From Candidatus Moraniibacteriota bacterium (lineage in GTDB: Bacteria; Patescibacteriota; Minisyncoccia; Moranbacterales; DUUL01): a DNA stretch of 64,000 bases. The stretch is from assembly GCA_041583775.1 (NCBI GenBank), contig JBFHFF010000001.1, positions 94,676 through 158,675 on the forward strand, in the 5' to 3' direction. Below the pieces are notes generated by a model, which saw nothing but the letters and a program-made list of their open reading frames with translations, made no database searches and was not told the DNA's origin. The position numbers and the translations under genes are program-made. This document shows, piece after piece, positions 8,933 through 62,000 of this stretch. Position 1 is the stretch's first letter, and each line of letters opens with the position of its first letter.

Positions 8933-9304
8933 TTATTCCTCACCAAATGATTCTGTCACATTTTCCACCTCTGACTCATTTCCTATAGCGTTATTCATAA
9001 ATTCATGCATCTCTTTTTTATATTTACCTATTTCGTCCAAAATAAGACTCTCCACATTAGGAAGATTTTCCTTCAAAAATAAATCAACCTCTTCCCCGCT
9101 TTCACTAGCAGAATTTATTACGCTGGCAAAATCTTCTTTTTTATTTTCAGGGAGTTCGGAAACTATTCTTAAAACTATTCTTTGTTGAATAATCTCTCCC
9201 ATTTGTATTAAAGTTTCCTCTCGTTGCTCTTTTGGCAGACTATCGATACCAAGTTCTTTTATTAAATCAACTTGAGCGGTTTTGATGTTTTCTTTTAAAG
9301 ACAT
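8933..9304 (-). CDS. Small acidic hypothetical protein (123 aa), co-operonic
   Basis: Separated by 11 bp from the upstream giant gene and 39 bp from the next gene. Acidic C-terminal tail. Confidence 0.5.
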   Translation of the reverse strand: MSLKENIKTAQVDLIKELGIDSLPKEQREETLIQMGEIIQQRIVLRIVSELPENKKEDFASVINSASESGEEVDLFLKENLPNVESLILDEIGKYKKEMHEFMNNAIGNESEVENVTESFGEE

Positions 9305-24837: not shown

Positions 24838-25863
24838 CTAATTACAATTATAACAAACATCCCAATGAGTATCCTCTCTTGCATAAATATTACCATCGCT
24901 ATCTTCATACATAACAGCGCCATCACCTCGAACGCCAGCAGGAGTAAAATTTGCCACAATATAATTATTAACTGCTAGTGTGTCTTCTATGTCCACTTTG
25001 TAACCATTCGCATGAGAAAATGTTGCCGTAGTATTATGCACAGTTGATGTCTCTGCTCCACCAGTTATGATAATTGGAGCTCCAACCTGACTTTGAAAAT
25101 CAATCACACCTTGAGTAGTAGCTGGCAAAAGATTTGACACATTGGTAGCACCAGGGCTTGATTCCCAAACGGTAATATCATATGGAATCAAAGCATCTCT
25201 CGCATTTTGTTCATTCAAATCACTTGACACACTGCCAGTTGTTCCTGTGGTCCCCGTTGTTCCTGTTGCTCCTGTTAATCCAGTTGTTGCCAATACAGCA
25301 GAGCTTGGAGCAGCAGTATCAAAAACACTATCACTAACGCATTGAAATTCATACCAGCGTCCGCCAGAACCAACTCCAAGAAAAGACTCATTAGCAGAAA
25401 TAAAAACCAAAATAGTATAAACAAGTAACCAAGAAAGAAGAAATCCCGCAAAACCCATCAGAGTTTTTGAAATAATTCCCTTAGCGATTGTTACTGTTCC
25501 TGGATTTCCAGCTGACACTAGATAGGTAACCCCTCCGATCGTAAGAGATAATAAAGCTAATATAATTATCCAGGCAAACATCAAATCAAAAATATTCTTT
25601 ACCATTATAAGCAAATGGCAAACCGTGCAACTTTTTTGTTCGTCATAAGGAGTCCTGCTGTCATCGCAACTTCTTCCGCAAGGCACAATAGCTCTGTCAA
25701 ATTGCAAAATACTCACACCAGCTATTCCTTCTGAAGGAGCCTTAGTTCCAGCACAATCAAGGGCTTTAGCTGTTAAAGGAGCGCCAAAAAAACATCCCGC
25801 AAAAAGAAAGATTGCCAATCCCGAGAAGAAAAAATTTCTGAGATTTTTAATTTTTATTTTCAT
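24838..25863 (-). CDS. Secreted Cys-rich two-helix membrane protein with VirB2/TrbC-like topology, (GTT)n linker and C-terminal possible M15-like zinc-peptidase motif
   Basis: Signal peptide with lipobox-like LFAGC. Six Cys in CGRSCDD...CTVC. Two hydrophobic helices separated by a short loop (IFDLMFAWIIILALLSLTIGGV / LMGFAGFLLSWLLVYTILVFI). Linker TGLTGATGTTGTTGTTG. C-terminal SHANGYKVDI fits HxxGxxxD, with a later DTHWD. Confidence 0.5.
   Translation of the reverse strand: MKIKIKNLRNFFFSGLAIFLFAGCFFGAPLTAKALDCAGTKAPSEGIAGVSILQFDRAIVPCGRSCDDSRTPYDEQKSCTVCHLLIMVKNIFDLMFAWIIILALLSLTIGGVTYLVSAGNPGTVTIAKGIISKTLMGFAGFLLSWLLVYTILVFISANESFLGVGSGGRWYEFQCVSDSVFDTAAPSSAVLATTGLTGATGTTGTTGTTGSVSSDLNEQNARDALIPYDITVWESSPGATNVSNLLPATTQGVIDFQSQVGAPIIITGGAETSTVHNTTATFSHANGYKVDIEDTLAVNNYIVANFTPAGVRGDGAVMYEDSDGNIYAREDTHWDVCYNCN
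25235..25288. repeat. Imperfect 9-bp tandem repeat (6 units, consensus ccNgttgtt) inside CDS 24838..25863
   Basis: Units are ccagttgtt, cctgtggtc, cccgttgtt, cctgttgct, cctgttaat and ccagttgtt. They encode the Gly-Thr-Thr linker on the minus strand. Confidence 0.7.
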
Positions 25864-36585: not shown

Positions 36586-37638
36586 TTAAATTTCAATGTT
36601 TTCTATTTCTCTCACCTCTTTAACAACTTTAATTTTCCCCAGTTTAACAAGTATAGAAAAAATTCCTGAAATTGTCCAGAAAAGAATTACATTGGAAATC
36701 CAAACAATTGACCTGATTGATACAAATAAAGCTACGGCACTACCTATTGGCAACATTTCTGATACAATTACTTGTCCATTAATCAAATCATTTGCCCTTT
36801 TGTTTATTAAATTATTTAGAACATCATCAATTCTTTCGTTTCCATCAAGTTCTATTTGCAGTTTATCCGCTAGCATCGCCCTATTTTTTTCAACAATCAT
36901 CCTCTCTCTTTCCCACACCTCTCTTTCAATTCCAGCCTCTCTTTGCGCTCTTATTTCGTCATCAACCTCATTCCTAATTTCTTCTAAGACGGTGCCCTCA
37001 AGAGAGATATCTTGGGAGCGTAAAATTTTCCGAAAATACTCATCCACAGTCACCCCCTCCAAAACCCAAGAAATCTCATCGTTGGGCATTACAATATCCA
37101 CAATTTTAAAAGCAATTCTTGTTGTTTCTGTTGATATTTTAATATTGATTCTTGGCACATGCCCAACTTTTTGCAAATTTGCAACTGAAAAATAAAAACC
37201 AGCAGCAACTAAAAGGGTGAATGCAGTTCCAATTACCGGGACACCTCTTTTTAAAATTCGATAAATATCTATATTGATTCGATTATACTGCTCCGTCTTA
37301 ATCCTTTCTATTGCAACTACACAGCTGGCCATAATAACCGCCCAGACCAAAAAAGAAGGCATTAGGTGGTCTTTTCCTAAAAAAACAGCGCCCATCATTC
37401 CAAATGAGCATACTAAATGTAAGATTCTACGATTGTGCTCCAAAACAACTAAAAAGTAAAAAAATCCAAAAGCACACAAATAAAGAAATGCTGCGAAAAA
37501 CAGCCCTTCATAATTATTTACAAAAAAAGCACGATACAACAACAACCATCCCAGTGAAAACAAAATCACGGTTCCTATTGCTAATGTGTACAATAATTTT
37601 TTGTTTTTCATTTTCTTTTTGTTTATTCTTTGAATCAC
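36586..37638 (-). CDS. Membrane protein (N-terminal 4 TM, coiled-coil cytoplasmic segment, C-terminal TM pair), unknown function
   Basis: 350-aa ORF whose start overlaps the stop of the bPH gene by 4 bp, implying translational coupling. Confidence 0.5.
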   Translation of the reverse strand: MIQRINKKKMKNKKLLYTLAIGTVILFSLGWLLLYRAFFVNNYEGLFFAAFLYLCAFGFFYFLVVLEHNRRILHLVCSFGMMGAVFLGKDHLMPSFLVWAVIMASCVVAIERIKTEQYNRINIDIYRILKRGVPVIGTAFTLLVAAGFYFSVANLQKVGHVPRINIKISTETTRIAFKIVDIVMPNDEISWVLEGVTVDEYFRKILRSQDISLEGTVLEEIRNEVDDEIRAQREAGIEREVWERERMIVEKNRAMLADKLQIELDGNERIDDVLNNLINKRANDLINGQVIVSEMLPIGSAVALFVSIRSIVWISNVILFWTISGIFSILVKLGKIKVVKEVREIENIEI

Positions 37639-38249
37639 TCCTTTCCTCGCATTATTACACCTTCCTCTCTTTTTTGCTCTCTAATTGCATTTTTTTGCAA
37701 TGTCATCACAACAGTTCTAATCATTACTGGATCTTTAACTTGCTTGAAAGTAAAACGCGCTTTCTCTCCAGCGGTTTGAATATAAACTTGTCCAAATTTC
37801 AATAAGGTAGGGATAATACCCTGAACTTCAGTAGTAACATCCTGAATTTTTCCGTGCTCCAATTCGCTTATCTCGCGCCTGAATAATCCCAACTGTTCTA
37901 TGCTAATTATTCTTTGATCTGTAACAATCCAAACATCATAATAAAAATCAATCCACATTATAAAAAGTCCTAGCCAAAAAGCCATCAAAGAAAAACTCAT
38001 AACCACATTAAACAAATGATTGTCAACTTCTATTGGAAGGTTATTTACTAAAATTGGAGCTAGAATAAAAATGAAAATAATTACAAATAAAAAAATCGCA
38101 AACGGAATTGTTTTTACTACCAAAATTAACCAATGTCTTCTTAGGATTAAGATAATTTCTTCATCCTCCCTTTTCCCTTTAAACTTATAATCCAAAAATT
38201 GGTGCTGATAATTTTTTTTGTTTTTATTCATAATTGGAAAAATCTTCAA
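37635..38249 (-). CDS. Bacterial PH-domain (bPH_2/DUF304, YdbS-like) membrane protein
   Basis: Two TM helices followed by a PH-like region (YDVWIVTDQRIISIEQLGLFRREISELEHGKIQDV). Confidence 0.55.
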   Translation of the reverse strand: MKIFPIMNKNKKNYQHQFLDYKFKGKREDEEIILILRRHWLILVVKTIPFAIFLFVIIFIFILAPILVNNLPIEVDNHLFNVVMSFSLMAFWLGLFIMWIDFYYDVWIVTDQRIISIEQLGLFRREISELEHGKIQDVTTEVQGIIPTLLKFGQVYIQTAGEKARFTFKQVKDPVMIRTVVMTLQKNAIREQKREEGVIMRGKE

Positions 38250-38487
38250 AATCCAAGCCAGCAGGAATTACAACAAACTCAAAAGAGAGTGCACTCCAAT
38301 CAATTTGAATTGCATTTGAAACATTAAAAGTTAGTATCAACAAACAACCAACAATAAAAAGCATCGTTGTTACTGTAGAGATTTTTTCATTTAATTTACT
38401 TGCTCGAAGATGGTAAATAACCGCTAAAAAACCTCCAAGGAAAAATGTCAAAAGAAGAAAATATACAATCAATGGTAAGTTTATCAT
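38224..38487 (-). CDS. Small two-TM membrane protein (87 aa)
   Basis: Hydrophobic ORF overlapping the start of the bPH gene. Weak support. Confidence 0.3.
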   Translation of the reverse strand: MINLPLIVYFLLLTFFLGGFLAVIYHLRASKLNEKISTVTTMLFIVGCLLILTFNVSNAIQIDWSALSFEFVVIPAGLDFEDFSNYE

Positions 38488-38513: not shown

Positions 38514-39521
38514 CTAATCTACTTGTTTTCTATTTTCAGGAATTTCAATTCCCAAATGTTTATATGCTGCATCTGTCACTCGTCTTCCTCTTGGCGTTCT
38601 CTCAATAAATCCAAGTTGCATTAAAAATGGCTCATAAACTTCTTCAATTGTCTGAACATCTTCAGAAAAAGCTGCGGCAATTGTTTGAACTCCAACTGGT
38701 CCACCAGAAAATTTTTCTATCATAACTCTCAGGACCTCCCTATCGGCTGTTTCCAGTCCAAGATTATCAACATCTAAAATTTCAAAAGTTGCAAGGACTG
38801 TTTCGTTTGAAATTATTGAATGATTGTTCATTTGTGCATAATCCCGCACTCTTTTTAAAAGCCTATTAACAATTCTAGGCGTTTTTCGTGAACATCTTGC
38901 AATGGTAGTCCTACCTGCCAAATCAGTTTCAACCCCCAAAATTTTACTATTTCTTTCAATTATTTGACACATTTCATCATCAGAATAAAACTCCAATTTG
39001 TTGATTATCCCAAATCTATTACGAAGTGGCGCCGACAACATTCCCAATCTTGTCGTTGCGCCAATAAGTGTAAATTTTGGCAATTCTAATTGGATCGTCC
39101 TAGCTGATGGACCTTTCCCAACAATAATATCCAATTTACCATCTTCCATCGCTGGATACAAAACTTCTTCTACAACTTTACTCAATCTATGAATTTCATC
39201 GACAAAAAGCACATCCCCGTCATTCAAATTCGTTAAAATTGAACCAAGATCACCAACCCTTTCAATTGCAGGTCCAGATGTTGTTTTTATCCCCGCTCCC
39301 ATTTCCCTAGAAATAATATGAGCCAAAGTAGTCTTTCCTAAACCAGGAGGACCAAAGAGCAAAATATGATCAAGTGACTCCTTTCTTTGTTTTGCAGCTC
39401 CCATTAGAATATGCAAATTCTTTTTTACAATTTTTTGCCCTACATAATCACTCAAAACCTGTGGTCGCAAAGTAATCTCCAGCTGTTCATCTATTTCTTC
39501 TTGTTTATTTGTTTCAATCAT
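38514..39521 (-). CDS. ruvB: Holliday junction branch migration helicase RuvB
   Basis: [17 protein letters not shown] Walker A, DEIHRL Walker B and a winged-helix C-terminus. 335 aa. Confidence 0.9.
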
Positions 39522-39629: not shown

Positions 39630-39896
39630 GCAACTCTTGACAATTTTTTTGCTTTATGCTAGGATGTATTAACATAGATTGAAAATTATGTTAATGTTTC
39701 TTTACATTTTTGATATCAACCTGTAGACAAGGGTGCTCTGAACTCCCAAGGAATTTTTCTTAGTATAGGTTAGTGTGGTTCCGGCTGTGCTATCCTCGGA
39801 TCTATTCCTGCCTTATGCCTTGTGCGTAAGCTTTTATTGTCTACAGATTGATGTTATAAATGCGCTTTGAAACTGCCTTCATAGGCAGTTTTTTGT
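39630..39896 (+). ncRNA. Candidate small structured RNA (about 180-220 nt) of unknown class, with its own promoter-like site and terminator
   Basis: Plus-strand element sits between two minus-strand genes. TTGACA at 39636 with a -10-like TAGGAT 17 nt downstream. Near-perfect 15/16-bp closing stem 39715-39730 / 39837-39852 encloses about 106 nt. Additional 9-bp hairpin 39668-39695. Intrinsic terminator 39871-39896 (ctgcct/aggcag + T6), oriented for the plus strand. Confidence 0.35.
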
Positions 39897-39911: not shown

Positions 39912-42900
39912 TTACTCTGTTAATTTATCAGGATCCTCATCTAATCTTCGTCCGATTTGTTTGATTTTGTCAACATAATCAATTTCCGTAATTACATGCG
40001 CAACTTCATCAAGTGTAGTTTCACCTCTTAGAATGTGCAATATTCCGTCTTGTCCCATTGTCAGCATTCCCTCTTCAATGGCTTTTTCTCTAATTTCAAT
40101 TGTAATTGGGTTTGTTGTTAAAAATTTCTGCATATTCCTACCGACTTCCAATACCTCCGTAATCGCAACTCTTCCTTTAAAGCCAAGATTGTGACATTTA
40201 TCACAGCCAATTGGCTCAAAAACTTTATTCGCCGTTTTAGGGATATCAACTTCTATTTTTGAAGAGATACTATCCAAAACCTCCTCTATAATTCTTTTCT
40301 CCTCAGGTTTCATATCTCGCTCCCTCTTACAATGAGGACAAAGCGTTCTAACTAATCTTTGCGCAACAAAACAATTAGTTCCCGAGGAAAGATCTGACAT
40401 AGAAACACCCATATTCAACAACCTTTGCACCGAACCAGCAGCACTATTAGTGTGTAATGTTGTTAAAATCAAGTGACCTGTTAAAGCAACTTTGTAAGCG
40501 GCGTTGGCACTTTCAGAATCTCTTATCTCTCCTACCATTATAATATCAGGATCCTGTCTTAAGATAACCCTCATAGCGCTCGAAAAAGTATATCCGTCAT
40601 CTTCTTTCACTTGTGTCTGTAAAATTCCTTCCATTTGATATTCAATTGGATCTTCTATTGTTATAACTTTGAGCTTTGGATCTTTAAGATAATTCAAAAG
40701 ACTATACAAAGTGGTTGTTTTACCACTGCCGGTTGGTCCTGTGTCCATAATAATCCCATTTGGCTTTGCAACATTTCTAAGTATCTTCTCAAGATTATAA
40801 GGATTCATATTTAACTCGGCTAATTCTGTCACCTGAACACTTTGACTCAAGAGCCTCATAACAATAACATCCCCAAAACCACCTAAGATTACAGATACTC
40901 TAACATCTATTGATTCCTCCCCTGACTCCCTTTCTTTATTTGAATAAACAATTTTAAACCTTCCATCTATCACCCCTTCTCTCTTGCCTGTCTTTACTCC
41001 CATTAGATTTTTAATCTCATTTAAAACAGTAAGATAATCATTCATTGATAGAAGAGCAACATCATGCAAAACTCCATCAATTCGATATCTGATTTTAAAT
41101 TTTTTCAATCCAGGCTCTACATGAATATCACCAGCACCTGTATACACAGCTCCAATCAAAACATATCTCACCAATTCCTTCGGGGGGAGGGTAGAAAATA
41201 ATTCTTCAAATTCTTCGTAATTGTCTTTCACTTTCAACATTTCCTCCAAGACATCATCTTTGATGAAAATTCCACGCGCCAAAGATTGAACAACTATTTT
41301 TTCATATAAATCAATTAGATATTCTCCTTTTCCAACAACGCGTTGCAATTCTTCAATCGAAGTGACTCCGGAAACTGACTTCAAAATTCCATCCTGTTCC
41401 AGAGTAATCATTCCGTTCTCTAGCGCTGCACTCCTAATTTCATCCTCTGGAGCCATTTTTTCAATCGCTTCCTTAATTTCATCTGTAATAACAAGTATCT
41501 CAAAAATACCAACGCGCCCTTTATAGCCAAGTCCATGACATTTAGCACAACCCTTTGGCTTCCAAAGTTTATCAATGTGCTTAGGAATCGAAATATCTGC
41601 CTTAGGAGAAATAAGCGCAAGCATTTTTTTTATCATATCAATAGTTTCGCTTGCTGGTACATATTCTTCCTTACAATGTGGACATAGACGCCTCAAAAGA
41701 CGCTGGGCAACAAAAGCATTTACTGCGGGCGCAATCAGGTTGGGCTTAACTCCAAGATCAACAAATCGTCCAATTACACCACTAGCACTATTTGCATGTG
41801 TTGTTGAAAGCACTAAATGTCCAGTCAAAGATGCGTGAATAGCAATCTCTGCAGTAGATTCATCTCTAATTTCTCCAACCAAAATTATATCTGGATCTTG
41901 ACGCATAATCGCTCTTAATCCATTTTCAAAAGTATACCCTTTTGAATCTTCAACTTGTGTCTGACTTACGCCAGGAACTTGATACTCAATTGGGTTTTCA
42001 ATACTAATAATTTTTTTATCAACAGAATTTAAACGGTTTATTAGAGCATAAAGAGTTGTAGTCTTTCCACTTCCCGTCGGTCCTGAGTTAATTATTGCAC
42101 CTTGTTTTTTCTCTGACTCATTTACAAGCCATTCATAGTTTAAACCTTCTAGTCCCATCTTACTTAAAGACAAATCGTTGATACTTTGACTAAGTAAACG
42201 GACTACAATGTTTTCACCAAAATTTCCTGGCAAAACTGAAACACGAAGATCCATCGCTGACTGACCCTCTCTTTCAACAGAAAAACGACCGTCTTGAGCA
42301 ATGTCACGCACATTTATCATCATTTTCGAAAGAACCTTTACCCTCGAAACAATCGTTGGATATATATGTATCGGAAATGATGCAACTGTCTGAAGAACGC
42401 CATCAATACGAAACCTTAAACGAACTTTTCCTGTCTGTTGAGGTTCGAAATGGATATCCGAAGATTGCAATTTAATTGCACCAGCAAGAATCATATTCAA
42501 AACCTTGGTTACTGGAAGATCTCGAATTTTTCTATCCATATCCAAAACTCCTTTTGTTTCATCCTCAAAAGCTGCTAATTCCTCCCCTGTCAAACCAGCT
42601 CTTAGTGTATCAAGAATTACACTCAGATTCTCCTTTTCATATTCTTGCCAAGCTCTTTCTATTGAAGACTGTGACACCACAAAAAGCTCAACCCTCATCC
42701 CATCATCCTCTAAATCAGTAATAAAATCTCTAACTTTTCCACTTTCAGGATTAGTGGTAACTATCTTAATTGATCTTTCTAATTTATGAACGACTGCAAT
42801 TCCCAAATTTTTTGCTGTTTCCTTATCAATAAATTTAACATTTTCTTGATCAATTGGAAAAATGTTTAAATCTAAGTAAGGAAGATGCATATCCTTTGCA

Positions 42901-43220
42901 AGTTTCGAAGCCTCTTCTTCCTCAGAATCCCTCCTTAAGTGGGTTAATGTTTTCTGAACTCCTCCTCTTCTAGCAAAATTAATAGCCTCTTTGTTCTTTT
43001 TCTTCAACTCAAGCAATCTAGCTCTTTCTTTTTCATTCTCTAATTCTCTTTCTATTCGTCTTTTTTCACGAGCCTCTAAATAGCGCTGTTCCCTTTCTTC
43101 TGGAGATTCGTCTTCTTCATAAACAACTCTTTCCACATCTTTATCTGCATTTGTTTTAACAGTTTGCGAGCTATCATCCACAACAGCATCTCCTTGATTT
43201 TGTTTTTCTTCTTCACTCAT
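39912..43220 (-). CDS. Tandem-fused double PilB/GspE-type (type II/IV secretion/pilus assembly) ATPase, 1102 aa
   Basis: Contains two complete units. Each unit has a T2SSE N-domain, Walker A (SGPTGSGKTTTLYAL / TGPTGSGKTTTLYSL), Asp box, Walker B (DPDIILVGEIRD / DPDIIMVGEIRD), His box (GHLVLSTTHANSA / GHLILTTLHTNSA) and a tetracysteine motif (CPHCKEEY...CAKCHGLGYKGR / CPHCKRERD...CDKCHNLGFKGR). Acidic N-terminal extension. Confidence 0.85.
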   Translation of the reverse strand: MSEEEKQNQGDAVVDDSSQTVKTNADKDVERVVYEEDESPEEREQRYLEAREKRRIERELENEKERARLLELKKKNKEAINFARRGGVQKTLTHLRRDSEEEEASKLAKDMHLPYLDLNIFPIDQENVKFIDKETAKNLGIAVVHKLERSIKIVTTNPESGKVRDFITDLEDDGMRVELFVVSQSSIERAWQEYEKENLSVILDTLRAGLTGEELAAFEDETKGVLDMDRKIRDLPVTKVLNMILAGAIKLQSSDIHFEPQQTGKVRLRFRIDGVLQTVASFPIHIYPTIVSRVKVLSKMMINVRDIAQDGRFSVEREGQSAMDLRVSVLPGNFGENIVVRLLSQSINDLSLSKMGLEGLNYEWLVNESEKKQGAIINSGPTGSGKTTTLYALINRLNSVDKKIISIENPIEYQVPGVSQTQVEDSKGYTFENGLRAIMRQDPDIILVGEIRDESTAEIAIHASLTGHLVLSTTHANSASGVIGRFVDLGVKPNLIAPAVNAFVAQRLLRRLCPHCKEEYVPASETIDMIKKMLALISPKADISIPKHIDKLWKPKGCAKCHGLGYKGRVGIFEILVITDEIKEAIEKMAPEDEIRSAALENGMITLEQDGILKSVSGVTSIEELQRVVGKGEYLIDLYEKIVVQSLARGIFIKDDVLEEMLKVKDNYEEFEELFSTLPPKELVRYVLIGAVYTGAGDIHVEPGLKKFKIRYRIDGVLHDVALLSMNDYLTVLNEIKNLMGVKTGKREGVIDGRFKIVYSNKERESGEESIDVRVSVILGGFGDVIVMRLLSQSVQVTELAELNMNPYNLEKILRNVAKPNGIIMDTGPTGSGKTTTLYSLLNYLKDPKLKVITIEDPIEYQMEGILQTQVKEDDGYTFSSAMRVILRQDPDIIMVGEIRDSESANAAYKVALTGHLILTTLHTNSAAGSVQRLLNMGVSMSDLSSGTNCFVAQRLVRTLCPHCKRERDMKPEEKRIIEEVLDSISSKIEVDIPKTANKVFEPIGCDKCHNLGFKGRVAITEVLEVGRNMQKFLTTNPITIEIREKAIEEGMLTMGQDGILHILRGETTLDEVAHVITEIDYVDKIKQIGRRLDEDPDKLTE

Positions 43221-43334: not shown

Positions 43335-44234
43335 CTATTTCTCAAAGATTCTATCTCTTAAATTTCTCCACTCTTGAATTGATAAATTTTGCGCCCTGAC
43401 ATTTTCATTCCAACCAAAATCATTGAAAATATCGATTATTTCATTCTTATCTTTCTTTAAACCAATGACAAGATTGTTGAGCAACTTTTTTCGTGGACTC
43501 GAAAAACCACTTTTCACAACTTGAAAAAATTCTTTTTCTAATTTTTTTGACTCTCTTTTTTTTGAACCAAAAGGCTTTGCAAAAATAATAGCTGAATCAA
43601 CTTTTGGCGATGGATAAAAAGCGGTCTTTGGAACAATATCAACCAATTCAACTTTACAATAATATTGAACTGAAACAGCAAGTATATTCATTGCCCCAAT
43701 TTCACAAGTAACCCTCTTGGCAACTTCTTTTTGGATTAAAAGCACAATCAGTTTAGGTTGAATTTCCGTCTCCAAAAGTAAACGAAAAATCTTACCTGTT
43801 ATATAATAAGGGATATTTGCAACCACCTTATAATCACAAAAATTGTTCTCTTTTAAAAATTCTGGCAAATTAATTTCCAGAAAATCTCTCTCCACAATTT
43901 TGAGACTTTCCCTTTTTTTATTTCCGCCATTTGAAAAATATTTTTCATTCAAAAATTTGACCATTCTTTGGTCTTTTTCAATGCAAATTACTTTTTTTGG
44001 TATTTTAATAAGCTGGTCGGTCAACAACCCAGTTCCTGGTCCAATCTCTAAAACATTATCTTGTATTTCTAGGTTTGCTGCGTTGACAATCATATCAAGA
44101 AATTTCTCATCATTTAAAAAATTTTGTCCTAGAGATTTCTTAGCACAAGGTGAGTTTTTGAAATTATTATTCACCCCACTTTCGCTTCTAAATTGCCTTC
44201 TTTTTTCTTTCCTAGTTATCATTTTTAAAGCCAT
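43335..44234 (-). CDS. rsmA: 16S rRNA (adenine1518/1519-N6)-dimethyltransferase
   Basis: LGQNFL and EIGPGTGLLT SAM-binding motifs. Confidence 0.85.
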   Translation of the reverse strand: MALKMITRKEKRRQFRSESGVNNNFKNSPCAKKSLGQNFLNDEKFLDMIVNAANLEIQDNVLEIGPGTGLLTDQLIKIPKKVICIEKDQRMVKFLNEKYFSNGGNKKRESLKIVERDFLEINLPEFLKENNFCDYKVVANIPYYITGKIFRLLLETEIQPKLIVLLIQKEVAKRVTCEIGAMNILAVSVQYYCKVELVDIVPKTAFYPSPKVDSAIIFAKPFGSKKRESKKLEKEFFQVVKSGFSSPRKKLLNNLVIGLKKDKNEIIDIFNDFGWNENVRAQNLSIQEWRNLRDRIFEK

Positions 44235-45432: not shown

Positions 45433-46119
45433 ATGACAAATCCCAAAGATAAAGATTTAGAAAAAAAGATTTTAAAACAAGAATTAGCCGAGACAAACAA
45501 AAGACTATTGGCAACACTTGATTATGTTGTAACACTGGAGGAGAGGTGCGCCAGCTGGAAAAAAATAGCAAGAAAATTCCAGGAGATGGCGTTGATAGAC
45601 GGATTAACAGAGGTGCCAAATCGAAGATTCTTCGATATAACATTCGATGAAATCTTCCAGAAAAGGCTTGCTGGGACAGAAAAAATTGCAAGAAAAAGAA
45701 GCAGTGACAAAAATCAAGGACCACTAACATTACTGTTAGTAGATATAGATTTCTTCAAGCCGTATAATGATGTCTCTGGTCATCCAGCTGGAGACAAGGC
45801 TCTTCGTCAGGTAGCCTCAGCAATGAAGAGTTCTTTACGAAGCAATGACTTCTTAGCTAGATACGGCGGAGAAGAATTTGTCGTAATTCTTCCCAATACA
45901 AGCCATACTGAAGCTCAACTTGTGGCAGAGAGAGCAAGGAAAGCTGTCGAAAATCTTGGAATCCCACACCCGGGCTCTGGGACAAGCGAAGTTGTAACTG
46001 TCAGCATTGGGTTGGCCGCTCTCTCGGGAGAACTCTCCCCAGAAGAATTTCTGGAGGCGGCCGACAAAGCCTTATACAATGCCAAGAGGAAAGGGAGGAA
46101 TTGCGTTTATTACGATTAA
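45433..46119 (+). CDS. Diguanylate cyclase (GGDEF domain, intact GGEEF site) with N-terminal coiled coil
   Basis: SD AAGGAG lies 7 nt upstream. LLLVDIDFFKPYNDVSGHPAGDKALR and RYGGEEFVVILP (active-site GGEEF). Strong terminator at 46128-46170. Confidence 0.85.
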   Translation: MTNPKDKDLEKKILKQELAETNKRLLATLDYVVTLEERCASWKKIARKFQEMALIDGLTEVPNRRFFDITFDEIFQKRLAGTEKIARKRSSDKNQGPLTLLLVDIDFFKPYNDVSGHPAGDKALRQVASAMKSSLRSNDFLARYGGEEFVVILPNTSHTEAQLVAERARKAVENLGIPHPGSGTSEVVTVSIGLAALSGELSPEEFLEAADKALYNAKRKGRNCVYYD

Positions 46120-46338: not shown

Positions 46339-46995
46339 ATGCAAGAATTAGAGCAATTGAAAGAAATTTTTTACCAAAAAAAAGTTTCTGACGAAACAGT
46401 ATCATATGTAAAAGCGCTTGAAAAAGCATTGCAGATGGCTGTTGCTAGAACAAAAAGATTGGAAGAAGACAAAAAAAAATTACTAACAAGTTTTAGTTCT
46501 TTCAGAGTAACAACCCCTTTTGATTTAATATCTGGGGCTCACACTGCTACTTTCTTTGAAGATGAAATAAAGAAAAGAGTATTGGAAAGCAAGGAGAGTA
46601 AAAGCCCCTTATCTCTAATCATCATTGAAGTGAATCGCTTCAGGGACTACTGGAATACTTCCAAATTTTCAGAGGGAGATTCACTGTTATACGAAGTTGC
46701 TTCTAATCTACAAGGCTTCTTAGGGCCCACAAGCTCACTCTCAAAAACAGATAATGGGCAGTTCTCTGTTTTGATTCCCAAAACAAAAAAGGAAGCTATA
46801 AACTTAGCATTAGGGCTTCAAAAAAGCCTTACATCTCTCAAGATTCCACACTGCGGCAACACAGAGACAATTTTTACTTTCGGTGTTGCCACATTGGGAA
46901 CACAAGAATCTGTAAAAGCTTTTTTGATCCGGAGCAAAAGGTATTTGCGATTGTCTAAAAAAGAAAACTGTTATATGTATTGTGGTGGCGATTAA
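46339..46995 (+). CDS. Degenerate GGDEF-domain protein (GGDEF replaced by DNGQF), probably non-catalytic
   Basis: SD GGAGG lies 6 nt upstream. SLIIIEVNRFRDYWNTSKFSEGDSLLYEVA aligns with the GGDEF N-terminal half. The active-site position reads DNGQFSVLIP. N-terminal coiled coil as in its neighbour. Two terminators follow (47003-47044, 47061-47092). Confidence 0.6.
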   Translation: MQELEQLKEIFYQKKVSDETVSYVKALEKALQMAVARTKRLEEDKKKLLTSFSSFRVTTPFDLISGAHTATFFEDEIKKRVLESKESKSPLSLIIIEVNRFRDYWNTSKFSEGDSLLYEVASNLQGFLGPTSSLSKTDNGQFSVLIPKTKKEAINLALGLQKSLTSLKIPHCGNTETIFTFGVATLGTQESVKAFLIRSKRYLRLSKKENCYMYCGGD

Positions 46996-54022: not shown

Positions 54023-55264
54023 TTACTCATACCTAAGCGCATCAAGAGCATGAATTTTTGCTGCTCGTTGAGCTGGCATAATTCCAGTAACTAGACCAAG
54101 AAAAAGAATAAAAGAAACAATAGCGGCAACAAAATAATAAGGTATATAAACAAAATTGGAAAGCTCAACTCCGTTTTTATGTGCTAAATATACGAGGGCC
54201 TTATTTACTACCATCGCCAACCCATACCCCCCAAACAATCCCAACATTCCGCCTGCCACACTAATTAAAATAGCCTCAAAAATAAACATTTTAAAGATAT
54301 CTTCTCGTTTAGTTCCCAACGCTTTTAGAATACCGACCTCCTTCGTTCTTTGCAAAAGAGAAATACTTAAAGTATTCAACATTCCCATGGCAGAGATAGA
54401 CATTATGATTGTGCCTAACACTATCATAATAACTCTAATTACCACAAAAAAACTATTAATATCTTCGATGATTTCATTGACACTTTCCGTTAAAAATCCA
54501 AGCTGTTGAACTGCGAGTTCAATATTTGCCATTTCATCTACATTTTCAACTAAAATTTTCCCTTTTTGCGCAGAATCAACTCCAAACTCTGAGCTCAGAT
54601 AAGTAAAGGGCACAATAACAATTGAGGCGGATGATTCAGTAATTCCAATAATTTCAACTTCATTACCAGTAACTGTTGTTTCTTCGCTTACCGAAGAAGA
54701 AACCTCTTTTGAAAGAACCACTCCGAGTTTAACTTTTTTGCCTATCAATTCTTTGGGACTTTTAAAACCAAGGATGTTCGCTATTTGCATTGAAGCGATT
54801 ATGCCGTTTTCATTATCAGTGAATTTCCTGTCACCTTCTTCAAAAGATGTTTTTGCTAACTCTAAATAATCCTTATTTTCTCCATATATAACAGCATCAA
54901 TCTGAGAATCATTATATTCGAGTTTACCACCCGTGCTAACCTGTCTTGCCACACCCTTCACTCCTGCTATGTTTTCAATTTTAGTAACAAAATCACTATT
55001 TAGTGTAACAAAATTATCCAAGTTACCGTTATTTATATCCATCACATCGCGCGGGTTGTTTTTTGTCACCTCATCGATTATCATCCCTTGAACACCGAAT
55101 CCTATGCATAACAAAAATGTTATTATACCAATTCCCAAAGAAACTCCTCCTACTGTAAGAAAGGATCTAGTTTTATTTGCACGAAGATTTCTCCATCCAA
55201 GAAAAATAATCATATGCATTTTGATCTTTGAATATTTTTCTTTTTTCCAAAAAGCTAATTTCAT
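54023..55264 (-). CDS. ABC transporter permease, MacB/FtsX-like (N-terminal TM, large periplasmic domain, C-terminal FtsX 3-TM bundle)
   Basis: Topology is TM1, then a periplasmic domain of about 220 aa, then three C-terminal TMs. The start overlaps the stop of the ATPase gene by 4 bp (ATGA). Confidence 0.8.
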   Translation of the reverse strand: MKLAFWKKEKYSKIKMHMIIFLGWRNLRANKTRSFLTVGGVSLGIGIITFLLCIGFGVQGMIIDEVTKNNPRDVMDINNGNLDNFVTLNSDFVTKIENIAGVKGVARQVSTGGKLEYNDSQIDAVIYGENKDYLELAKTSFEEGDRKFTDNENGIIASMQIANILGFKSPKELIGKKVKLGVVLSKEVSSSVSEETTVTGNEVEIIGITESSASIVIVPFTYLSSEFGVDSAQKGKILVENVDEMANIELAVQQLGFLTESVNEIIEDINSFFVVIRVIMIVLGTIIMSISAMGMLNTLSISLLQRTKEVGILKALGTKREDIFKMFIFEAILISVAGGMLGLFGGYGLAMVVNKALVYLAHKNGVELSNFVYIPYYFVAAIVSFILFLGLVTGIMPAQRAAKIHALDALRYE

Positions 55265-56097
55265 TTTTTATTGAGTTTTTTATTTTCCTGCGTAATTATT
55301 TCCGCTACACGACCATCCAACATCTTAAAAACCTTACTTGCATAATGATATTGATCAGGATTGTGTGTAACCATTAGTATTGTTATTTCAAATTTTTTAT
55401 TCAACTGAGAAATAAGATCCATTAATTCAACTCCTGATTTTTGATCAAGATTTCCAGTCGGCTCATCTGCAATAATAAACCAGGGATTGAGGAGAAGTGA
55501 TCTCGCTAAAGCAACTCTCTGTTGTTGACCTCCAGAAAGATCAAAGGGTCTATGTTTTGACCATTCACTCATACCAACAAGCTCCAGCATTTGTGCTGCC
55601 TTTTCAAGCCCTTCATGAAATTTTAAACCACCTATAATTGAAGGAACTGCAACATTCTCCAAAACACTCAATGACTTAAGCCAAAAAGCTTGCTGTGGAA
55701 TAAATCCCACACTTTTATTTCGAAAATCAGCTCTCCAATTTTTCGTATGTTTCCAAATATCGGTACCTTTAATATAAACACTTCCTTGAGATGGTGCCTC
55801 CAAACCATAAACAATGTGTAATAAAGTTGATTTTCCGCACCCAGAAGGACCAACTAGCATCGCAAAATCACCCTGCTTGATTTTAAGGTCTACCCCATTA
55901 AGAACAGAAATTTCATTCTCTCCAATAACAAACTCTTTTTTGATATCACTAACAACAACAACACCTTCTTTTTCAGCGTACAATTCAACTGTTGCTTTAT
56001 CGTTATTACGATGACTTAAGCTTTTCAATATGTCGGCTTCTTCCCTTAAGTCACTTTCTTTTTTTTCTTTAATTATTGCCATAGTTTTGATATCCAA
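55261..56097 (-). CDS. ABC transporter ATP-binding protein (MacB/LolD-type)
   Basis: Walker A VGPSGCGKSTLL, signature LSGGQQQRVALARSL, Walker B FIIADEPTGNLD and H-loop. The start region overlaps the 3' end of the upstream giant gene. Confidence 0.9.
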   Translation of the reverse strand: MDIKTMAIIKEKKESDLREEADILKSLSHRNNDKATVELYAEKEGVVVVSDIKKEFVIGENEISVLNGVDLKIKQGDFAMLVGPSGCGKSTLLHIVYGLEAPSQGSVYIKGTDIWKHTKNWRADFRNKSVGFIPQQAFWLKSLSVLENVAVPSIIGGLKFHEGLEKAAQMLELVGMSEWSKHRPFDLSGGQQQRVALARSLLLNPWFIIADEPTGNLDQKSGVELMDLISQLNKKFEITILMVTHNPDQYHYASKVFKMLDGRVAEIITQENKKLNKK

Positions 56098-59000
56098 CTA
56101 AATTTATCAGCAAAAGTTCCTACAACTATTTCCGTTGCATTTTCTTTTGAATCTTCAACAATGACCGTCACAGCTTTTGTTGAAGTTTCATTTCCTGATT
56201 CATCGAATGTTTTAACGATATAACTATAAACCTGTCCTGGATCAACAGGAATAGTTACTAGATGATATGTATTTAAAGGGTCTTCTGCCGAACTCTGTTC
56301 AAAATTAGCCAACACTATTCCAGGGCTATAAAAAACTTTTGCAGTTGTAATTTCATCTGTTTCGACTTTGATATACAAATTTGCACGAGCATCCTTTCCT
56401 CTTCCAATCACCCTACCAACTGCACGATTAGAAAGAATCCCTGGAGGCCTACTATCAGCCTTGGTAATGATTTTTGTATCTAAAGTTGTTGCAGAAACTC
56501 CATCTTCAGCTGTTCCTCCAACATTGATTTCATATTCAACTGATGGCGCTAACCCCTCTAGTTCAATTGAATGTTCAGTTACATATTCGTTATCCAAAAA
56601 ATTATGAAGGGAAGCCTCACTTGTCATTTTAAAATTAATTAAAGTATTTGTCGGTAAAGTTGTGTTATATTTTACTATCACAGTCGGGATATCAACATTC
56701 TCCTTATTTTCAACAATAAGATCAGAAGAAATTGGTTGCTCTAAAGTTCTGAAATTATATCTATCCGAACTAAACTCATTCAAATCATCATCTATGGCAT
56801 CAATTTGAAAACTATAATCTGTTGTACTATCAAGCCCTGTTAATTTTATCATATGGCTGCTTCCCGAGGAAGTTTCCTCTATTAGCTCAGATAAGCTACC
56901 GCCCTTACCATAATGCAAAGTACATTTCGCACTGGTATTAGTTGTCCAAAAAATTGTTGCTACATCAAGACCTACATCAGACGCCTCGACTTCTGAAATT
57001 GTTGGAGGTGGCAATGTTTCAAAAGTTAAAATGTCACTCATTCCTATATTTCCATCTGGGTCTATGTATTTTGCTCTGTAATAATATTTTGAGCCAGCAT
57101 CCAAACCAGTGAGTTCAACAATATGATCTGTTAGAGAATCAACTTGTCCATTCGTTTTTCCAAGACTCATTGATTTTCCATATTCCACAAAAGAGCTGGC
57201 AAAACGATTAGTTCCCCATTTTATTGTAGCTTCATAAGCCTGAACTGTGTGAGTTGGTTCTGTTACTAATGTAGGAGGAGTTGTGTATCTTCCTGTAGGA
57301 ATTATATTCACTGTAGTTGATGCAATGGAAATATTATTAGTACTATCCTTTGATTTTACATAATAATAATAAGTTCTACTTTCAAGTTCCGTGTCAACAT
57401 AAGCACTTCCAGATGTTGATGCCACTTCTTTAAATGTTTCGTCGTCATCACTTCTGTAGATAATATAACCATCAAAATTGTCTTCATTGATTGAGACGGG
57501 AGGGGACCATTTAAGTGCTATTGAATATTCTTGATTTTCTCTATCAGAAGTATCAAAAATTTGAATATTAACTGGCGCTCCAGGGGCTGATGTGTCAGCT
57601 TCGAAATCTACATAAGCATATAAGTCATAATCAATATTTTCAGCCTCATCCATTGCGCATACATAAAAACGATTCAATCCTTTCTGTGTTGCAAAAGGTC
57701 CAGGACCAGCAGCTCTAACGGCTGTATTTATTATATTATATGCATTTGGTAAAGCGTTAACTGAATATACATATTTTATTTTATTAGCATCTCCCATATA
57801 AGACTCTGGTTGATCCCATTGAAAAGCAAAAGAATTTATTGTTGATGTTTCCGGAGTTACAGTCAAATTCCTCGGCGGAGAAGGAGCACTTGAACTGAAA
57901 TAATATTCCTGATTTATAGCTGCCGAAACATTTCCAGCCGCATCAACAACTCGTAAATGAAACCAATTTTTTCCAGATTGATAAGCAGCAACGGTATGTT
58001 CGTCATTTGGAAGAGTAAGTGTTGTTGCCATCGGATCATCGATGTCATACCAGACATCTTTCTCGTCTCCATCAGTTTGATATTGAAACTTAGCCACGCC
58101 AGAATGTGCATCGGTTACATCTGACTCCCAAGTAAAAGTATAATTGTCACTAGCTGTATAACCAGCTGGGTTAACTAATATATTTGTTGGATTTGTTGGA
58201 GAGGTATTATCGAAACGATAAGTGAAGGCCGCATATGTTGAAGCGGGTACCATTTCAGCATCATCAATCGCCTTAATCCTTAAATAATAATCCTCGCCTG
58301 AACTTAAATTTTCAGCCGTAAATGTATTTTCACTTTGTAAATTTCCTTCCAAATATGGATCTGCCGAACTATCAGTTCCAAAATAAACATAATACCCAAC
58401 AACACCAGAACCACCTGAGCCATCACTTGCACCATTAACCTCTTCGGCAGCCGGCCAAACAAAGTACGGTGCAATATTTCCATACCAAGCATTGCTTGTT
58501 AATATTACCCCCGAAGAACTATTGTTATAACCAACAACTGAAGTAGGATTTGTTGGAGCAATAGAATCTTGATAATAATTAATTTCGATATCTTCTAATA
58601 AAGGAGATTTTATTCTATCAGAAGATGTAAATTCTATCCTAATTTGAATATATCTATTTTCACCAGAAAGAATATTAAAACGATGCTCATTTGGACTAGG
58701 AATTTGTTCGTTTGTAACTCGCTCCCAACTTGACCATTCAACTTCATCACTTGATGTTCTGGTATAAATAACAGCACTTGTATTGTTTGGAAGTATGTAT
58801 CTCGCAGTTAAATTAGCCCACTTATATACATCAATGAGATCAATTGATTCAGAAGTATAGTTTCCTGTTTTTTTAAAACCAGTATCATTTTCGGCTGAGC
58901 CAACCACATAACTATATAAACCATTTCTATATGAATCAGATTCACCTCTTGCCGTCAACCAAATTCTATCATTTGAGAAAACGGCATCTCCTTCTCGATA

Positions 59001-62000
59001 AACTCTTGATGGGACATCTTCAAGCTCTTCCCAAGAATCAGCAGTAATGTTATATCTAAAATTTTCTCTAGTATTATTTCCCCTCATTGCATGCAAGTAT
59101 CCATCTCTTGTATCAACCAATGAACCACCATAGTTTATAGCAGCTGGAGCACTAGTTCTTGTCTCCCAAGAGCCAGAATTCACATCATATCTCCACATAG
59201 TAGAATAATTACCACCTCTGGTCCAATAAATATATGGCACATCACCAACTTCTTTATAAAGAATTTTTCCCCCATAATTATTTGTGAGTCCAGAAGTTGT
59301 CGGAAGTGCCGAAGACCAGCGGCTGCCAGCCGTAGCCTGCGTATCATATCTCCACCAATTAGAGCTTGCTCCTCTAGTAAGGTATATATATCTAGCGCCA
59401 TCGTATGTCATAGAGGACCCAGAGCTTGTCTGTAGAGGAATCGGATCTGTAGTAATTGTCTCCCAGGTATTCGTAGCAACTTCATATCTCATAAAATAGT
59501 TGTTGCTTCCGTCAATAGCTCTTGATCTTGTTCCGGTACCAGTTGAAAGATATATCGCGTTCTCATCTTCGTTGTATGCCATTGCTGTACCAGACCAAAG
59601 ACCAACAGGGGTATCTGCTAATTTCAGAAACTCACCAGAATTAGTATCATATTTTCCGAAATCACTACTGTAATAACCTCTTGTTATATATAAACTACCC
59701 GCACCATCTTCAACAAGTTCGGAGCCATAATAATAGTCAAAATATGAATTAGTACTATCCAAAATGGATGGTCCAAAAAAACCTCTTTGTGGAATTTCCC
59801 AAGAATTTTCTTCGATATTAAAACGATAAAACAAAGTTGAACCATTAGCTCTAAGAACATAAACATATCCATCAACAACTTTCATAGTAGTTCCGTAGGC
59901 AATACTATTTGGAATTTTAGGAAGTTGCATCCAAGAATCAGTTGTTACATCATACTTCATAAAGTTATCTCTCCAATTTCCACTTAACATGAAAATTGAA
60001 TTTGTTTCATCATCATAAGAAACGCAACCACCGTAATAAACACCGATTGGAGCTTTAGCTAAAGGAACCCAAGAATTTCCATCTTCTCCAGTTTCAATAT
60101 CATCGTCGATAATGTATTTTGAAAAATAAGGATAGTAATTACCCTGTAAGGCATATATGTAATTCTCTCCGTCGAAAACTGCATCAGCTCCTGCATAAAC
60201 CCTTTGTCCATCAGACTCATTTGGATTTCCAAATTCCGCATTAGATAAAGTTGTCCAACGATTGTCTTGAGTGTCATAACGATAAAAAACATCATCATTC
60301 CCTGGAAACGCATAAATATACCTTCCTCCGTCCGAAGAAAGTGAGCTACCATAAGTAAAATTCTTTGGTGCACTTGAAACTGATTCCCAATTATCATTTA
60401 CGATATCATACCTCCAAAAAGTTGAGGTATTTGTGCCACGAGATGCAAATAAATAACCCTCTGGTCCTTCTGCTAAAGTTCCTCCATAATAAACGGCCTC
60501 TGGTGCATCCTTAAGCGAAGACCAAGTATCAGTTTCTATGTCATAAACATAAAAACTTTTTTGATTATAACCTCTCAATGAATATAATTTACCATCGACA
60601 TGAACTAACTCAGCTCCTCGCTGAATTGTTCCTGGGGCATTTGACAAAAGTGTCTGTTGCCAAAAGCCATCGACTGCTTCCAGTTGTAATTCATCAGGCT
60701 CTGCTGAAGTTGAAATGTTCTCCACTTCACCCTCTTCAAAATCTGCCTGACTTGTTTGTATCTCAGTTTGAAAAGGAGAAACTCCATCATAGCTATAAAC
60801 AAAAGCCTCCCAAACTTCATCAGTTATATTCCCGTCGTTATCTTTCGTCTTCAAAAGTAAATAATAATCTCCTGTTGTCATCGCAATATTAGCAGAATAA
60901 CTAGTTGCTGTTTGAAAAACACCCTCAGTTTCTGGATCAGCAGAACTATCAGGTCCAAAATATACAAAATACCCTTCTATTTGAGATCCCGCATCTGATG
61001 CCTCTGTCCAAGAGAAAAAAGGGTGTGTATGTTTATACTCAGTGCTACTGACAAGAGATTCTCCTCCTATTCTTGCTGATGATGCTGAAATTGTTGTGGG
61101 ATTGATAGGGTCAACATCCTCACTATTATATGAAATTGTGATGTCATCAATAGTTGGAGTTTTTTCTCCATCAGAACTTACAAGGGTTACTTTCACTTGT
61201 AAATATCTTTTTTTAGGAGATTGGATATCAGTTCCTGAAATAGCCGTCCAAACAGACCAAGTAATGGCATCATCAGAACTTCTAGTTTGATATACAACAG
61301 AAGTATTAATTGGTATATCCTCGCTTGCTGTTAACGATATCCAGGAGTCAACATATCCAAGGTCCAATACTTCACTTGTGAAAGTTCCATTTAGAGTAAA
61401 GTTTGTTGTTCCTGCGGTATAACTCCAAAAATCAGTAATATCAGTTCCTGGTGAAGCATAAAAAGAATTGTTTCCAGTATAAGCAATTGATGCTCCTGCC
61501 CAAGTTCCTCGACCATAAGAATATTTTTGATTAAATGGCAATTCCCTCCAAGAGTCAGTTGCTATTGTATATTCCCAGGTACTGTTTTGATAATTTCCTG
61601 CAAGCGCTAAAATCTTTCCATTTTCATCAAATGTTAAATCTGTACCATAATATTGAGCAAAAGGTGTTTTTTCCAATTTACTCCAAGAATTAGTAGCTGT
61701 ATCATATTTCAAAAACGCAGTCTCTCCATCACCCACAGTGGTATAAAGATTAGTACCATCAGAAATTAAACGAGCACCAACATACGGATAATAATAAAAA
61801 TCATCAGTAGCAACATCAGCCATTTGAGTCCACGAATCGCCAGCAATATCATACCGATAAAAACTTCTCTGGGCATTACCCCTCAAAACATAAATAAAAC
61901 CATCAGAGGCATTATAAACAGCATTTGCACCTTGCCCCAAAGTTCCTGGCGCTGCCGACATTGAACTCCAAGAATCACTAGCTATGTCGTAACGGTAAAA

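Follow-up and report, generated by a model that had tools for sequence, protein, structure and literature searches.

A tandem two-module PilB/GspE-type ATPase encoded upstream of ruvB in a Moraniibacteriota bacterium

Anatomy and family of the two-module ATPase

The 64,000-nucleotide stretch of DNA analysed here (hereafter the window) comes from a Candidatus Moraniibacteriota bacterium (assembly GCA_041583775.1, contig JBFHFF010000001.1, positions 94,676 to 158,675 of the forward strand) and carries on its minus strand, at 39912..43220, between rsmA and ruvB, a gene that an earlier note had described as a head-to-tail fusion of two catalytically complete PilB/GspE-type secretion ATPases in one polypeptide of 1102 amino acids (aa). 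This description is borne out by the open reading frame (ORF), by Pfam and by self-alignment: a single ATG-initiated frame of 1102 aa is stop-free throughout, the T2SSE family matches it in two stretches with 715 bits against a cut-off of 24.9, and the two modules, each scoring ~630-640 bits with the module hidden Markov model, align to each other (residues 235-632 versus 678-1080) with 44% identity over 407 aa (E=1e-117). The domain order is N1, N2D1, CTD1, a 45-aa linker, N2D2 and CTD2, with N1 and N2D denoting N-terminal domains and CTD the C-terminal domain.

The protein begins with a charged, lineage-specific extension (residues 1-95; 42936..43220, minus strand), recognized by its composition and by helix prediction, which is acidic at residues 1-38 and highly charged with mixed charges at residues 39-100, and for which one long helix is predicted over residues 40-110. 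The N-terminus is ~67 aa longer than in typical family members, and the LPYxDL motif is preceded by 113 residues here compared with ~45 in most of them, so the extension is indeed atypical, as had been pointed out from the sequence. It is followed by the sole N1 domain (GSPII; Pfam MshEN, formerly T2SSE_N) at residues 112-197 (42630..42887, minus strand), which Pfam matches as a single stretch with E=1.5e-6. The suggestion that each half has its own T2SSE_N-type domain does not hold for module 2, because no second MshEN/N1 domain was found in the protein by Pfam and the gap between CTD1 and N2D2 is 45 residues, too short for a 90-aa N1.

Module 1 (N2D and CTD, residues 235-632; 41325..42518, minus strand) and module 2 (N2D and CTD without N1, residues 678-1080; 39981..41189, minus strand) were delimited by Pfam, self-alignment and a motif scan, and the same set of motifs is found in both. 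The Walker A sequence GPTGSGKTT lies at residues 380-388 of module 1 (window 42057-42083) and 828-836 of module 2 (window 40713-40739), the Asp box at 404-412 (IENPIE) and 852-860 (IEDPIE), Walker B at 445-452 and 893-900 (VGEIR in each), and the His box at 466-475 and 914-923, respectively. Tetracysteine sites are formed by Cys 513/516/558/561 (CPHC...CAKC, 513-561) and Cys 961/964/1006/1009 (CPHC...CDKC, 961-1009), and both modules have the RxRxDG arginines. Judging by the tetracysteine Zn sites and by the N1 domain on module 1, the protein is of the extension type.

The linker between them (residues 633-677; 41190..41324, minus strand) was defined by homologue alignment, structure prediction and a junction search; it has three short predicted helices, and L635, Y639 and L647 are invariant among 26 aligned homologues. 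In the junction search, some single-module PilBs aligned to it directly upstream of their own N2D, and from this match the linker appears to be a remnant of the pre-N2D region of the second copy, corresponding to the region that precedes N2D in single-module PilBs. The protein was also compared with the cyclic di-GMP (c-di-GMP) motif of MshE, which consists of two tandem 24-aa stretches of the form RLGxx(L/V/I)(L/V/I)xxG(L/V/I)(L/V/I)xxxxLxxxLxxQ. No such motif was found in the N-terminal region, which has at most 6/11 positions, equal to background, whereas a Myxococcales PilB used as control reaches 9/11. The best match of the whole protein to the 24-aa motif is in the linker, at residues 641-664 (~41229-41300, minus strand), with 8/11 positions against a background of 6, and may be a relic of the N-terminus of the second copy or a coincidence.

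The protein belongs to the GspE/PilB class of the PilT/VirB11-like secretion ATPase superfamily (PF00437), and its sequence leaves no doubt about a PilB/GspE fold. Its best matches among solved structures reach E=1e-106 for the first half and 1e-83 for the second, the closest being PilB/PilF of Geobacter, Myxococcus and Thermus and GspE of Vibrio. With PilB/PilF (Geobacter 5TSG/5TSH/6OLJ/5ZFR, Myxococcus 3JC8, Thermus 5IT5/6F8L) it shares the N1(GSPII)-N2D-CTD order, the catalytic boxes and the tetracysteine Zn site, but it has two N2D-CTD modules per chain (one or three in its relatives) and lacks N1 on module 2, its gene does not lie beside pilC/pilM/pilT, and it falls into a separate clade. 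Thermus PilF, on the other hand, multiplies its N1 domains and not its ATPase modules.

NCBIfam equivalog models were scored on each half separately, and none of their cut-offs was reached. The first and second half scored 469.3 and 372.4 with PilB TIGR02538 (cut-off 675.65), 458.3 and 381.8 with GspE TIGR02533 (630.25), 384.5 and 330.4 with GspE NF007755 (617), 237 and 211.5 with ComGA NF041000 (300), 377.3 and 333.8 with TfpB NF053534 (850), and 170.8 and 157.1 with PilT/PilU TIGR01420 (319.1); single-module orthologues likewise stay below the equivalog cut-offs. Assignment to a specific filament system is therefore not justified, and PilB or GspE equivalog status based on whole-protein scores was rejected, as a score such as the 827.6 bits obtained with TIGR02538 sums two modules. 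The Zn sites, the N1 domain and the sub-cut-off scores do not fit a PilT/PilU retraction ATPase. No gsp or comG genes were found nearby.

Conservation and spread of the tandem form

The appearance of a fusion could also arise if a sequencing or assembly error had joined two neighbouring pilB genes or if a tandem duplicate had collapsed, and an assembly artefact was among the concerns raised with the original description. The probability of this explanation is practically negligible. The reading frame is continuous over a conserved 45-aa linker with residues invariant in 26 homologues, and the motifs are kept on both sides of it. At the DNA level the two halves share just two short patches of 65-75% identity and are so barely alignable that reads of one could not be mistaken for the other and no repeat could collapse. 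The same protein is encoded, within 5309 bp of identical DNA, by the Logan assembly of run SRR29257461 and by a 228-kb NCBI contig, possibly derived from the same reads, and the architecture recurs in more than 120 clusters as well as in at least three GTDB species representatives.

In the protein search, the 120 best database clusters, drawn from NCBI, JGI, ENA and Logan assemblies, were all fused, with lengths of 1007-1111 aa, coverage of 76-100% and identity of 47-100%; the exceptions in size were a triple-module protein of 1460 aa and, at the short end, two entries of 834 and 896 aa. Where names are given, these clusters are called 'GspE/PulE family protein' or 'PilB' and come from Patescibacteria, Moranbacteria and Parcubacteria, and one entry is labelled Bathyarchaeia, which is probably a binning error. 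The earlier note had allowed that fused PilB might already be common and annotated in this lineage; it is common, as the 120 of 120 clusters show, but it is not annotated as a fusion, the names being generic only. An exhaustive search of 1.84 billion 50%-identity representatives with a 141-aa junction query (residues 585-725) gave 72 matches at E<=1e-10, including ~15 full-length clusters (980-1050 aa) that are contiguous across the junction and roughly nine more that are fragments. On these sequence comparisons, the tandem ATPases are a real family that is moderately diverse and of restricted distribution. No description of a tandem or fused PilB/GspE, or of pilB-ruvB linkage, was found in the full-text literature searched, many subscription papers being outside its coverage, and the tandem form, its triple relative and the ruvB-linked orphan clade discussed below appear to be undescribed.

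The claim that both halves keep every catalytic element is confirmed across the family. The Walker A Lys, the Asp-box and Walker B Glu, both His-box His and the RxRxDG Arg are invariant in both modules of the 26 aligned homologues, and full catalytic motif sets are present in both modules of 31/31 two-module proteins (the window's own and 30 others that are 41-91% identical to it). One CxxC is missing in a few relatives, and module 2 of the protein at locus L029 has the Walker A sequence GPTGAGKTT, which is still valid though it was missed by the strict regular expression. Both modules are thus predicted to be catalytically competent. One of them could instead be a degenerate regulatory pseudo-ATPase, so that three active sites would operate, and the C-modules are indeed derived in that, unlike all other PilBs, they carry substitutions at two near-universal N2D positions (S254->G697 in the ASDIH motif and P331->L779). 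These substitutions are also compatible with a specialization of the two N2Ds, and a degenerate module is very improbable given the invariance of the catalytic residues in both modules, which extends to the triple-module protein, and the similar mean within-class identity of N-modules (0.62) and C-modules (0.57).

The ruvB-linked clade and its neighbourhood

Downstream of the ATPase gene lies ruvB (38514..39521, minus strand; Pfam and locus annotation), the neighbour that is kept in the ATPase clade, followed by two further members of the conserved neighbourhood recognized by locus comparison, an 87-aa ORF (38224-38487, minus strand) and the gene that it precedes, encoding a bPH_2-domain membrane protein (37635..38249, minus strand; also by Pfam). 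The upstream neighbour is rsmA/ksgA, encoding the 16S rRNA adenine dimethylase (43335..44234, minus strand; Pfam), which occupies the same position in L001 and L085, and beyond it are genes for a G5-DPBB protein, two opposite-strand GGDEF proteins and UvrD. No PilC, PilM/N/O or prepilin peptidase was found in Pfam scans of the neighbouring and other selected window ORFs, a PilC/pilin scan of window 29001-54000 was negative, and a motif scan across the entire 64-kb window found no pilin-type signal. The gene is therefore orphaned from pilus genes, as had been noticed, but this is not a peculiarity of its own and is the rule for the whole ruvB-linked clade of the Candidate Phyla Radiation (CPR) to which it belongs. 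The two small GGDEF proteins (45433-46119 and 46339-46995, plus strand; the second a weak match) are encoded by the sole plus-strand genes in the stretch. A c-di-GMP link between them and the ATPase was rejected, as N1 lacks the MshEN motif and GGDEF genes are not conserved neighbours in the other loci.

The neighbourhood is shared by two-module orthologues at 52-59% identity on contigs of 0.7-0.9 Mb, where the order is either UvrD, G5-DPBB, rsmA, ATPase, ruvB, recG or TsaE, DHH, ATPase, ruvB, a 73-aa ORF, bPH_2 and, further on, ruvC. A scan of GTDB species representatives, from which the best 80 of at least 600 stretches were kept as loci, provides examples and not a census. For example, in L008 (Moraniibacteriota) and L011 (Paceibacterota) the slot in the series DHH-ATPase-ruvB-bPH_2 holds a single-module PilB of 569-602 aa, and seed-based annotation places a PilB-like ATPase directly upstream of ruvB in Saccharibacteria, Giovannoni-, Kaiser-, Nealson-, Staskawicz-, Colwell- and Peribacteria and in Minisyncoccia, the neighbours in a Saccharibacteria example being PolA, TsaE, RuvB, RuvC, tyrosyl-tRNA synthetase, a penicillin-binding protein and DnaN. 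Among the loci listed, PilC, PilT and pilins are each encoded within +/-10 kb in 0/28 of those that are RuvB-linked, compared with 39/55, 28/55 and 23/55, respectively, of those that are not, a class that includes canonical CPR pil operons (e.g. L010). The window's gene groups in the clade and is followed directly by a co-oriented ruvB, with pil genes absent from the surrounding +/-10 kb; these comparisons show it to be an orthologue in a Patescibacteria-specific clade of PilB-like ATPases that is encoded upstream of ruvB in a replication/repair setting and is detached from pilC/pilM/pilT/pilins. In eight other loci (L043, L051, L054, L067, L068, L069, L073 and L082) the ruvB-linked slot holds a short PilB-like ATPase of ~430-450 aa, apparently without N1, so the clade varies in the presence of N1 as well as in module number.

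The spacer of 390 bp that separates the ATPase gene from ruvB folds with a minimum free energy z=-4.7 relative to shuffled sequences, and the predicted fold consists of a hairpin just past the ATPase stop codon and then a long-range helix enclosing 106 nt. The element defined by folding and by a covariance model spans 39702..39873 (minus strand), with closing arms at 39705-39730 and 39837-39862. Six other loci show this architecture upstream of ruvB, their arms differing by compensatory changes, and a covariance model built from the seven copies found 14 more, all on the gene strand and all in the spacer after an orphan ATPase gene, without a match in any pil-operon locus. The copy in the window scores 110 bits in sense and 23 in antisense orientation (157 versus 22 bits in another example), and the closing helix has compensatory changes at 12/13 pairs across the 21 copies. 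The element is ~145-180 nt long, with a closing helix of 13-19 bp whose core is CUGUAGACA/UGUCUACAG and an interior consensus of GAGG-A-[helix]-CAGCC-GNRA-CCA-[helix']-YCC; further copies are L002:13072-13250, L011:12855-13020, L007:2313-2484, L008:6074-6239, L029:13264-13438, L013:11650-11843, L006:9179-9354, L001:13168-13346 and L004:14434-14606, and 11 more loci have one. A candidate small RNA had previously been proposed at this flank of the gene. Rfam 15 gave no family match on the spacer, terminator-like matches aside, but a conserved and covarying structured element does exist there and is probably the same candidate. It looks like an undescribed CPR structured RNA and could be an independent noncoding RNA or a leader of ruvB. 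In L001, L002, L006 and L007 the ATPase stop codon and the element are separated by an intrinsic terminator, and in L004 the element remains with the ATPase gene though ruvB has relocated. With a terminator and the element in between, co-transcription of the ATPase gene and ruvB is improbable.

The origin of the fusion was addressed with a neighbour-joining tree of 170 N2D+CTD modules (382 columns, Kimura distances, 200 bootstraps). An orphan clade containing all N-, C- and middle modules, all ruvB-linked single modules and four proteins with little or no informative context was recovered in 161/200 replicates, separate from the pil-operon PilBs, including those of CPR bacteria. Within it, the C-modules were monophyletic in 137/200 replicates, or in 175/200 when L005 and L029, the two most divergent, were left out, and the core N-modules grouped with the single-module proteins of L007, L008 and L011 in 166/200; N-modules average 52-55% identity to these single modules and ~45% to C-modules. 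These groupings indicate that the fusion is an old internal duplication within the CPR orphan clade, which settles the question of duplication versus fusion of different paralogues, and a fusion of PilB with PilT, GspE or ComGA is excluded by the same tree. Module 2 appears from the sequences to stem from a single ancient duplication, its N1 having been lost since.

The triple-module relative (P0010, 1460 aa; L004:10001-14383 of JGI 3300022698, contig Ga0248662_100121) adds to this picture. It has full motifs in all three modules and contains the linker sequence twice, its gene lies in a rearranged version of the conserved neighbourhood, and its modules are 46-58% identical as protein and ~68% as DNA, a divergence that rules out both a recent origin and an assembly artefact. 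In 149/200 bootstraps the middle module groups as sister to the C-module of the same protein. The orthologous slot thus holds one-, two- or (once) three-module versions.

The setting of these genes raises the question of whether the clade comprises type IV pilus motors at all, or whether it serves another process peculiar to the CPR, for instance the uptake or translocation of DNA that feeds recombination, or secretion via an unrecognized platform. The genes adjoin pil genes in 0/28 loci and always adjoin ruvB, often with ruvC, recG, uvrD, polA, dnaN or tsaE near; the proteins form a clade of their own apart from the pil-operon PilBs, those of CPR included, and score below every equivalog cut-off. 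In addition, TM7x (Saccharibacteria) has two characterized pilus systems, each with a pilC-adjacent pilB, and no ruvB-linked gene is listed among them. However, the characterized members of this ATPase class all work via a PilC/GspF-type platform, and the hallmarks of the extension class (N1 and Zn site) are kept here; the terminator before ruvB leaves co-regulation not evident, and a gene order that is conserved in reduced CPR genomes may reflect nothing but history. A role outside type IV filament assembly is therefore possible but unlikely.

Elsewhere in the window, an 828-aa protein (5883-8369, minus strand) has matches to TrwB/type IV secretion system (T4SS) coupling proteins and to HerA-like ATPases, and its gene adjoins those of a DUF5663 protein, a 165-aa ORF and a 1675-aa protein without a Pfam match (8396-8893, 8933-9304 and 9316-14343, minus strand). 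Together with a 341-aa protein (24838-25863, minus strand) that has a weak sub-threshold T4SS_pilin match, this cluster may represent a conjugation- or T4SS-like module. A 2490-aa protein with many Kelch/beta-propeller repeats and fibronectin type III domains (56073-63545, minus strand), encoded next to an ABC transporter/FtsX-MacB pair (54023-56097), is probably a surface protein. The window has ~34% GC, a GC skew that is negative in all 2-kb bins but one, nearly all genes on the minus strand and no tRNA or Rfam match across its 64 kb, a composition that is typical of a reduced Patescibacteria genome.

Possible ring architectures and implications

In PilB hexamers the N2D of each protomer rests on the CTD of the next one (PMC11656802), and the structures are elongated and two-fold symmetric, four of the sites being closed and two open, with opposite protomers equivalent (PMC11656802, PMC10790770). 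The PulF/PilC platform has been modelled as a trimer whose duplicated Cyto1/Cyto2 domains alternate around a ring of six, with one ATPase N2D bound to each domain (PMC10790770), and TfpB provides a precedent for an unlinked extension motor (PMC8213720). The reading that we favour, with a probability of roughly 0.55, is that the window's gene encodes a natural tandem extension-class PilB-type ATPase, three chains of which form a planar pseudo-hexameric ring that drives a filament machine encoded elsewhere. N- and C-modules would alternate in this ring, half of the N2D-on-CTD packing contacts would be intramolecular, and there would be three N1 domains instead of six. On a trimeric PilC-type platform that is also encoded elsewhere, the six alternating Cyto1/Cyto2 domains would serve as docking sites for the six alternating N2Ds, and the ring would power the assembly of a type IV filament (a pilus or a competence pseudopilus), like the unlinked second motor TfpB in Acinetobacter. 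The trimer of covalent dimers suggested in the earlier note is thus reasonable as a model, and a planar ring of six modules is favoured over stacked rings because one, two and three modules per chain all divide six.

The earlier note had gone further and proposed that covalent dimerization would impose the alternation of subunit states known from PilB structures. This part could not be upheld, as the structures are two-fold with equivalent opposite protomers, whereas an (N-C)3 ring would place an N-module opposite a C-module. A two-fold rotary cycle pairing opposite protomers would thus couple an N-module to a C-module in every pair, and both would have to stay fully active, which matches the strict conservation of both catalytic sets.

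A different arrangement would be a stacked double ring of six chains, with the N-module ring above the C-module ring as in KaiC, NSF/p97 and ClpB, in which the N-ring alone would meet the platform and the C-ring would be auxiliary or regulatory. Tandem P-loop ATPases often form stacked rings, and the solved relatives found include the GspE-Hcp1 fusions 4KSR and 4KSS, in which Hcp1 was reportedly fused to the GspE C-terminus as an assistant hexamer, a case that would show that a second ring can underlie an ATPase ring. Loss of N1 from module 2 would also be expected where a ring never touches the stator, and the AlphaFold monomer does not place the modules side by side (predicted TM-score, pTM, of 0.42). 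On the other hand, the orthologous slot holds one-, two- and three-module forms, and a triple would need three stacked rings; the second N2D is conserved like the first, RxRxDG included, though it would face no platform; and PilC/PulF is modelled as six alternating domains facing six N2Ds in one plane. Two stacked rings are, on balance, distinctly unlikely.

Covalently linked ring ATPases such as GspE-Hcp1 (4KSR/4KSS), KaiC, NSF and ClpB resemble the tandem ATPase in that linkage constrains the stoichiometry or arrangement of modules. GspE-Hcp1 is artificial and fuses a non-ATPase ring, unlike the ATPase-ATPase fusion here, and KaiC, NSF and ClpB each stack two rings, whereas the arrangement favoured here is a single planar ring of alternating modules. 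GspE/PulE belongs to the same ATPase superfamily, and its modelled 6:3 ATPase:platform complex is the rationale for a trimer of two-module chains (PMC10790770), although no type II secretion system genes lie near this ATPase gene. The same evolutionary logic relates PilC/GspF, in which one chain with two duplicated cytoplasmic domains forms a trimer, to TadB and TadC, single-domain chains that form a trimer of heterodimers (PMC10790770); in PilC/GspF the duplication lies in the membrane platform, whereas here it lies in the ATPase. TfpB of Acinetobacter baylyi is, like the product of this gene, a PilB paralogue without pilC synteny that is distinct from the canonical PilB, and it acts on a machine encoded elsewhere (PMC8213720), but it is a gammaproteobacterial, single-module protein without ruvB linkage, and the resemblance is limited to its function as an unlinked paralogue. 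CPR bacteria lack the PilQ secretin and apparently a Gram-negative envelope (PMC6744442).

Several observations weigh against a planar three-chain ring that drives a filament machine. The PilB, GspE, ComGA and TfpB cut-offs are all missed by both halves, a terminator and a structured element separate the ATPase gene from ruvB, and the ruvB linkage may be historical rather than functional. In the tree, N-modules and single modules form a clade without the C-modules in 54/200 replicates, leaving the C-modules weakly placed inside the orphan clade, and the triple-module protein is known from one contig. The AlphaFold monomer, predicted from a 26-sequence alignment, has confident domains (mean predicted local distance difference test score, pLDDT, of 74) and, at a pTM of 0.42, no confident inter-module arrangement, and as a model it neither supports nor contradicts the ring.

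Beyond this gene, a broader and more tentative proposal is that Patescibacteria may have a hitherto unrecognized, vertically inherited class of PilB-like motors that is detached from all pilus genes, is fixed in position beside ruvB and a conserved structured RNA, and has repeatedly changed its module number (one, two, three) while keeping a six-module ring. The N- and C-modules would be specialized for Cyto1 and Cyto2, and the motors would possibly run a CPR-specific process (DNA uptake for nucleotide scavenging, or host attachment) distinct from the two characterized Saccharibacteria pili. If this were true, the tandem forms would be natural 'covalent hexamer' experiments, giving a pseudo-three-fold motor, or a two-fold one for the triple.

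The coupling of the two-fold ATP cycle of hexameric PilB/GspE motors to a platform that is now regarded as trimeric is hard to study in a homo-hexamer because single subunits cannot be mutated separately. Linking subunits has been informative for ClpX and other ring ATPases, and a natural chain of two distinguishable active modules (three in one relative) gives a direct handle on this motor symmetry problem. Type IV pili are central to the episymbiont lifestyle of CPR bacteria, and the presence across the CPR of a PilB paralogue whose gene never accompanies pilus genes points to an unstudied component of the episymbiont pilus/competence toolkit.

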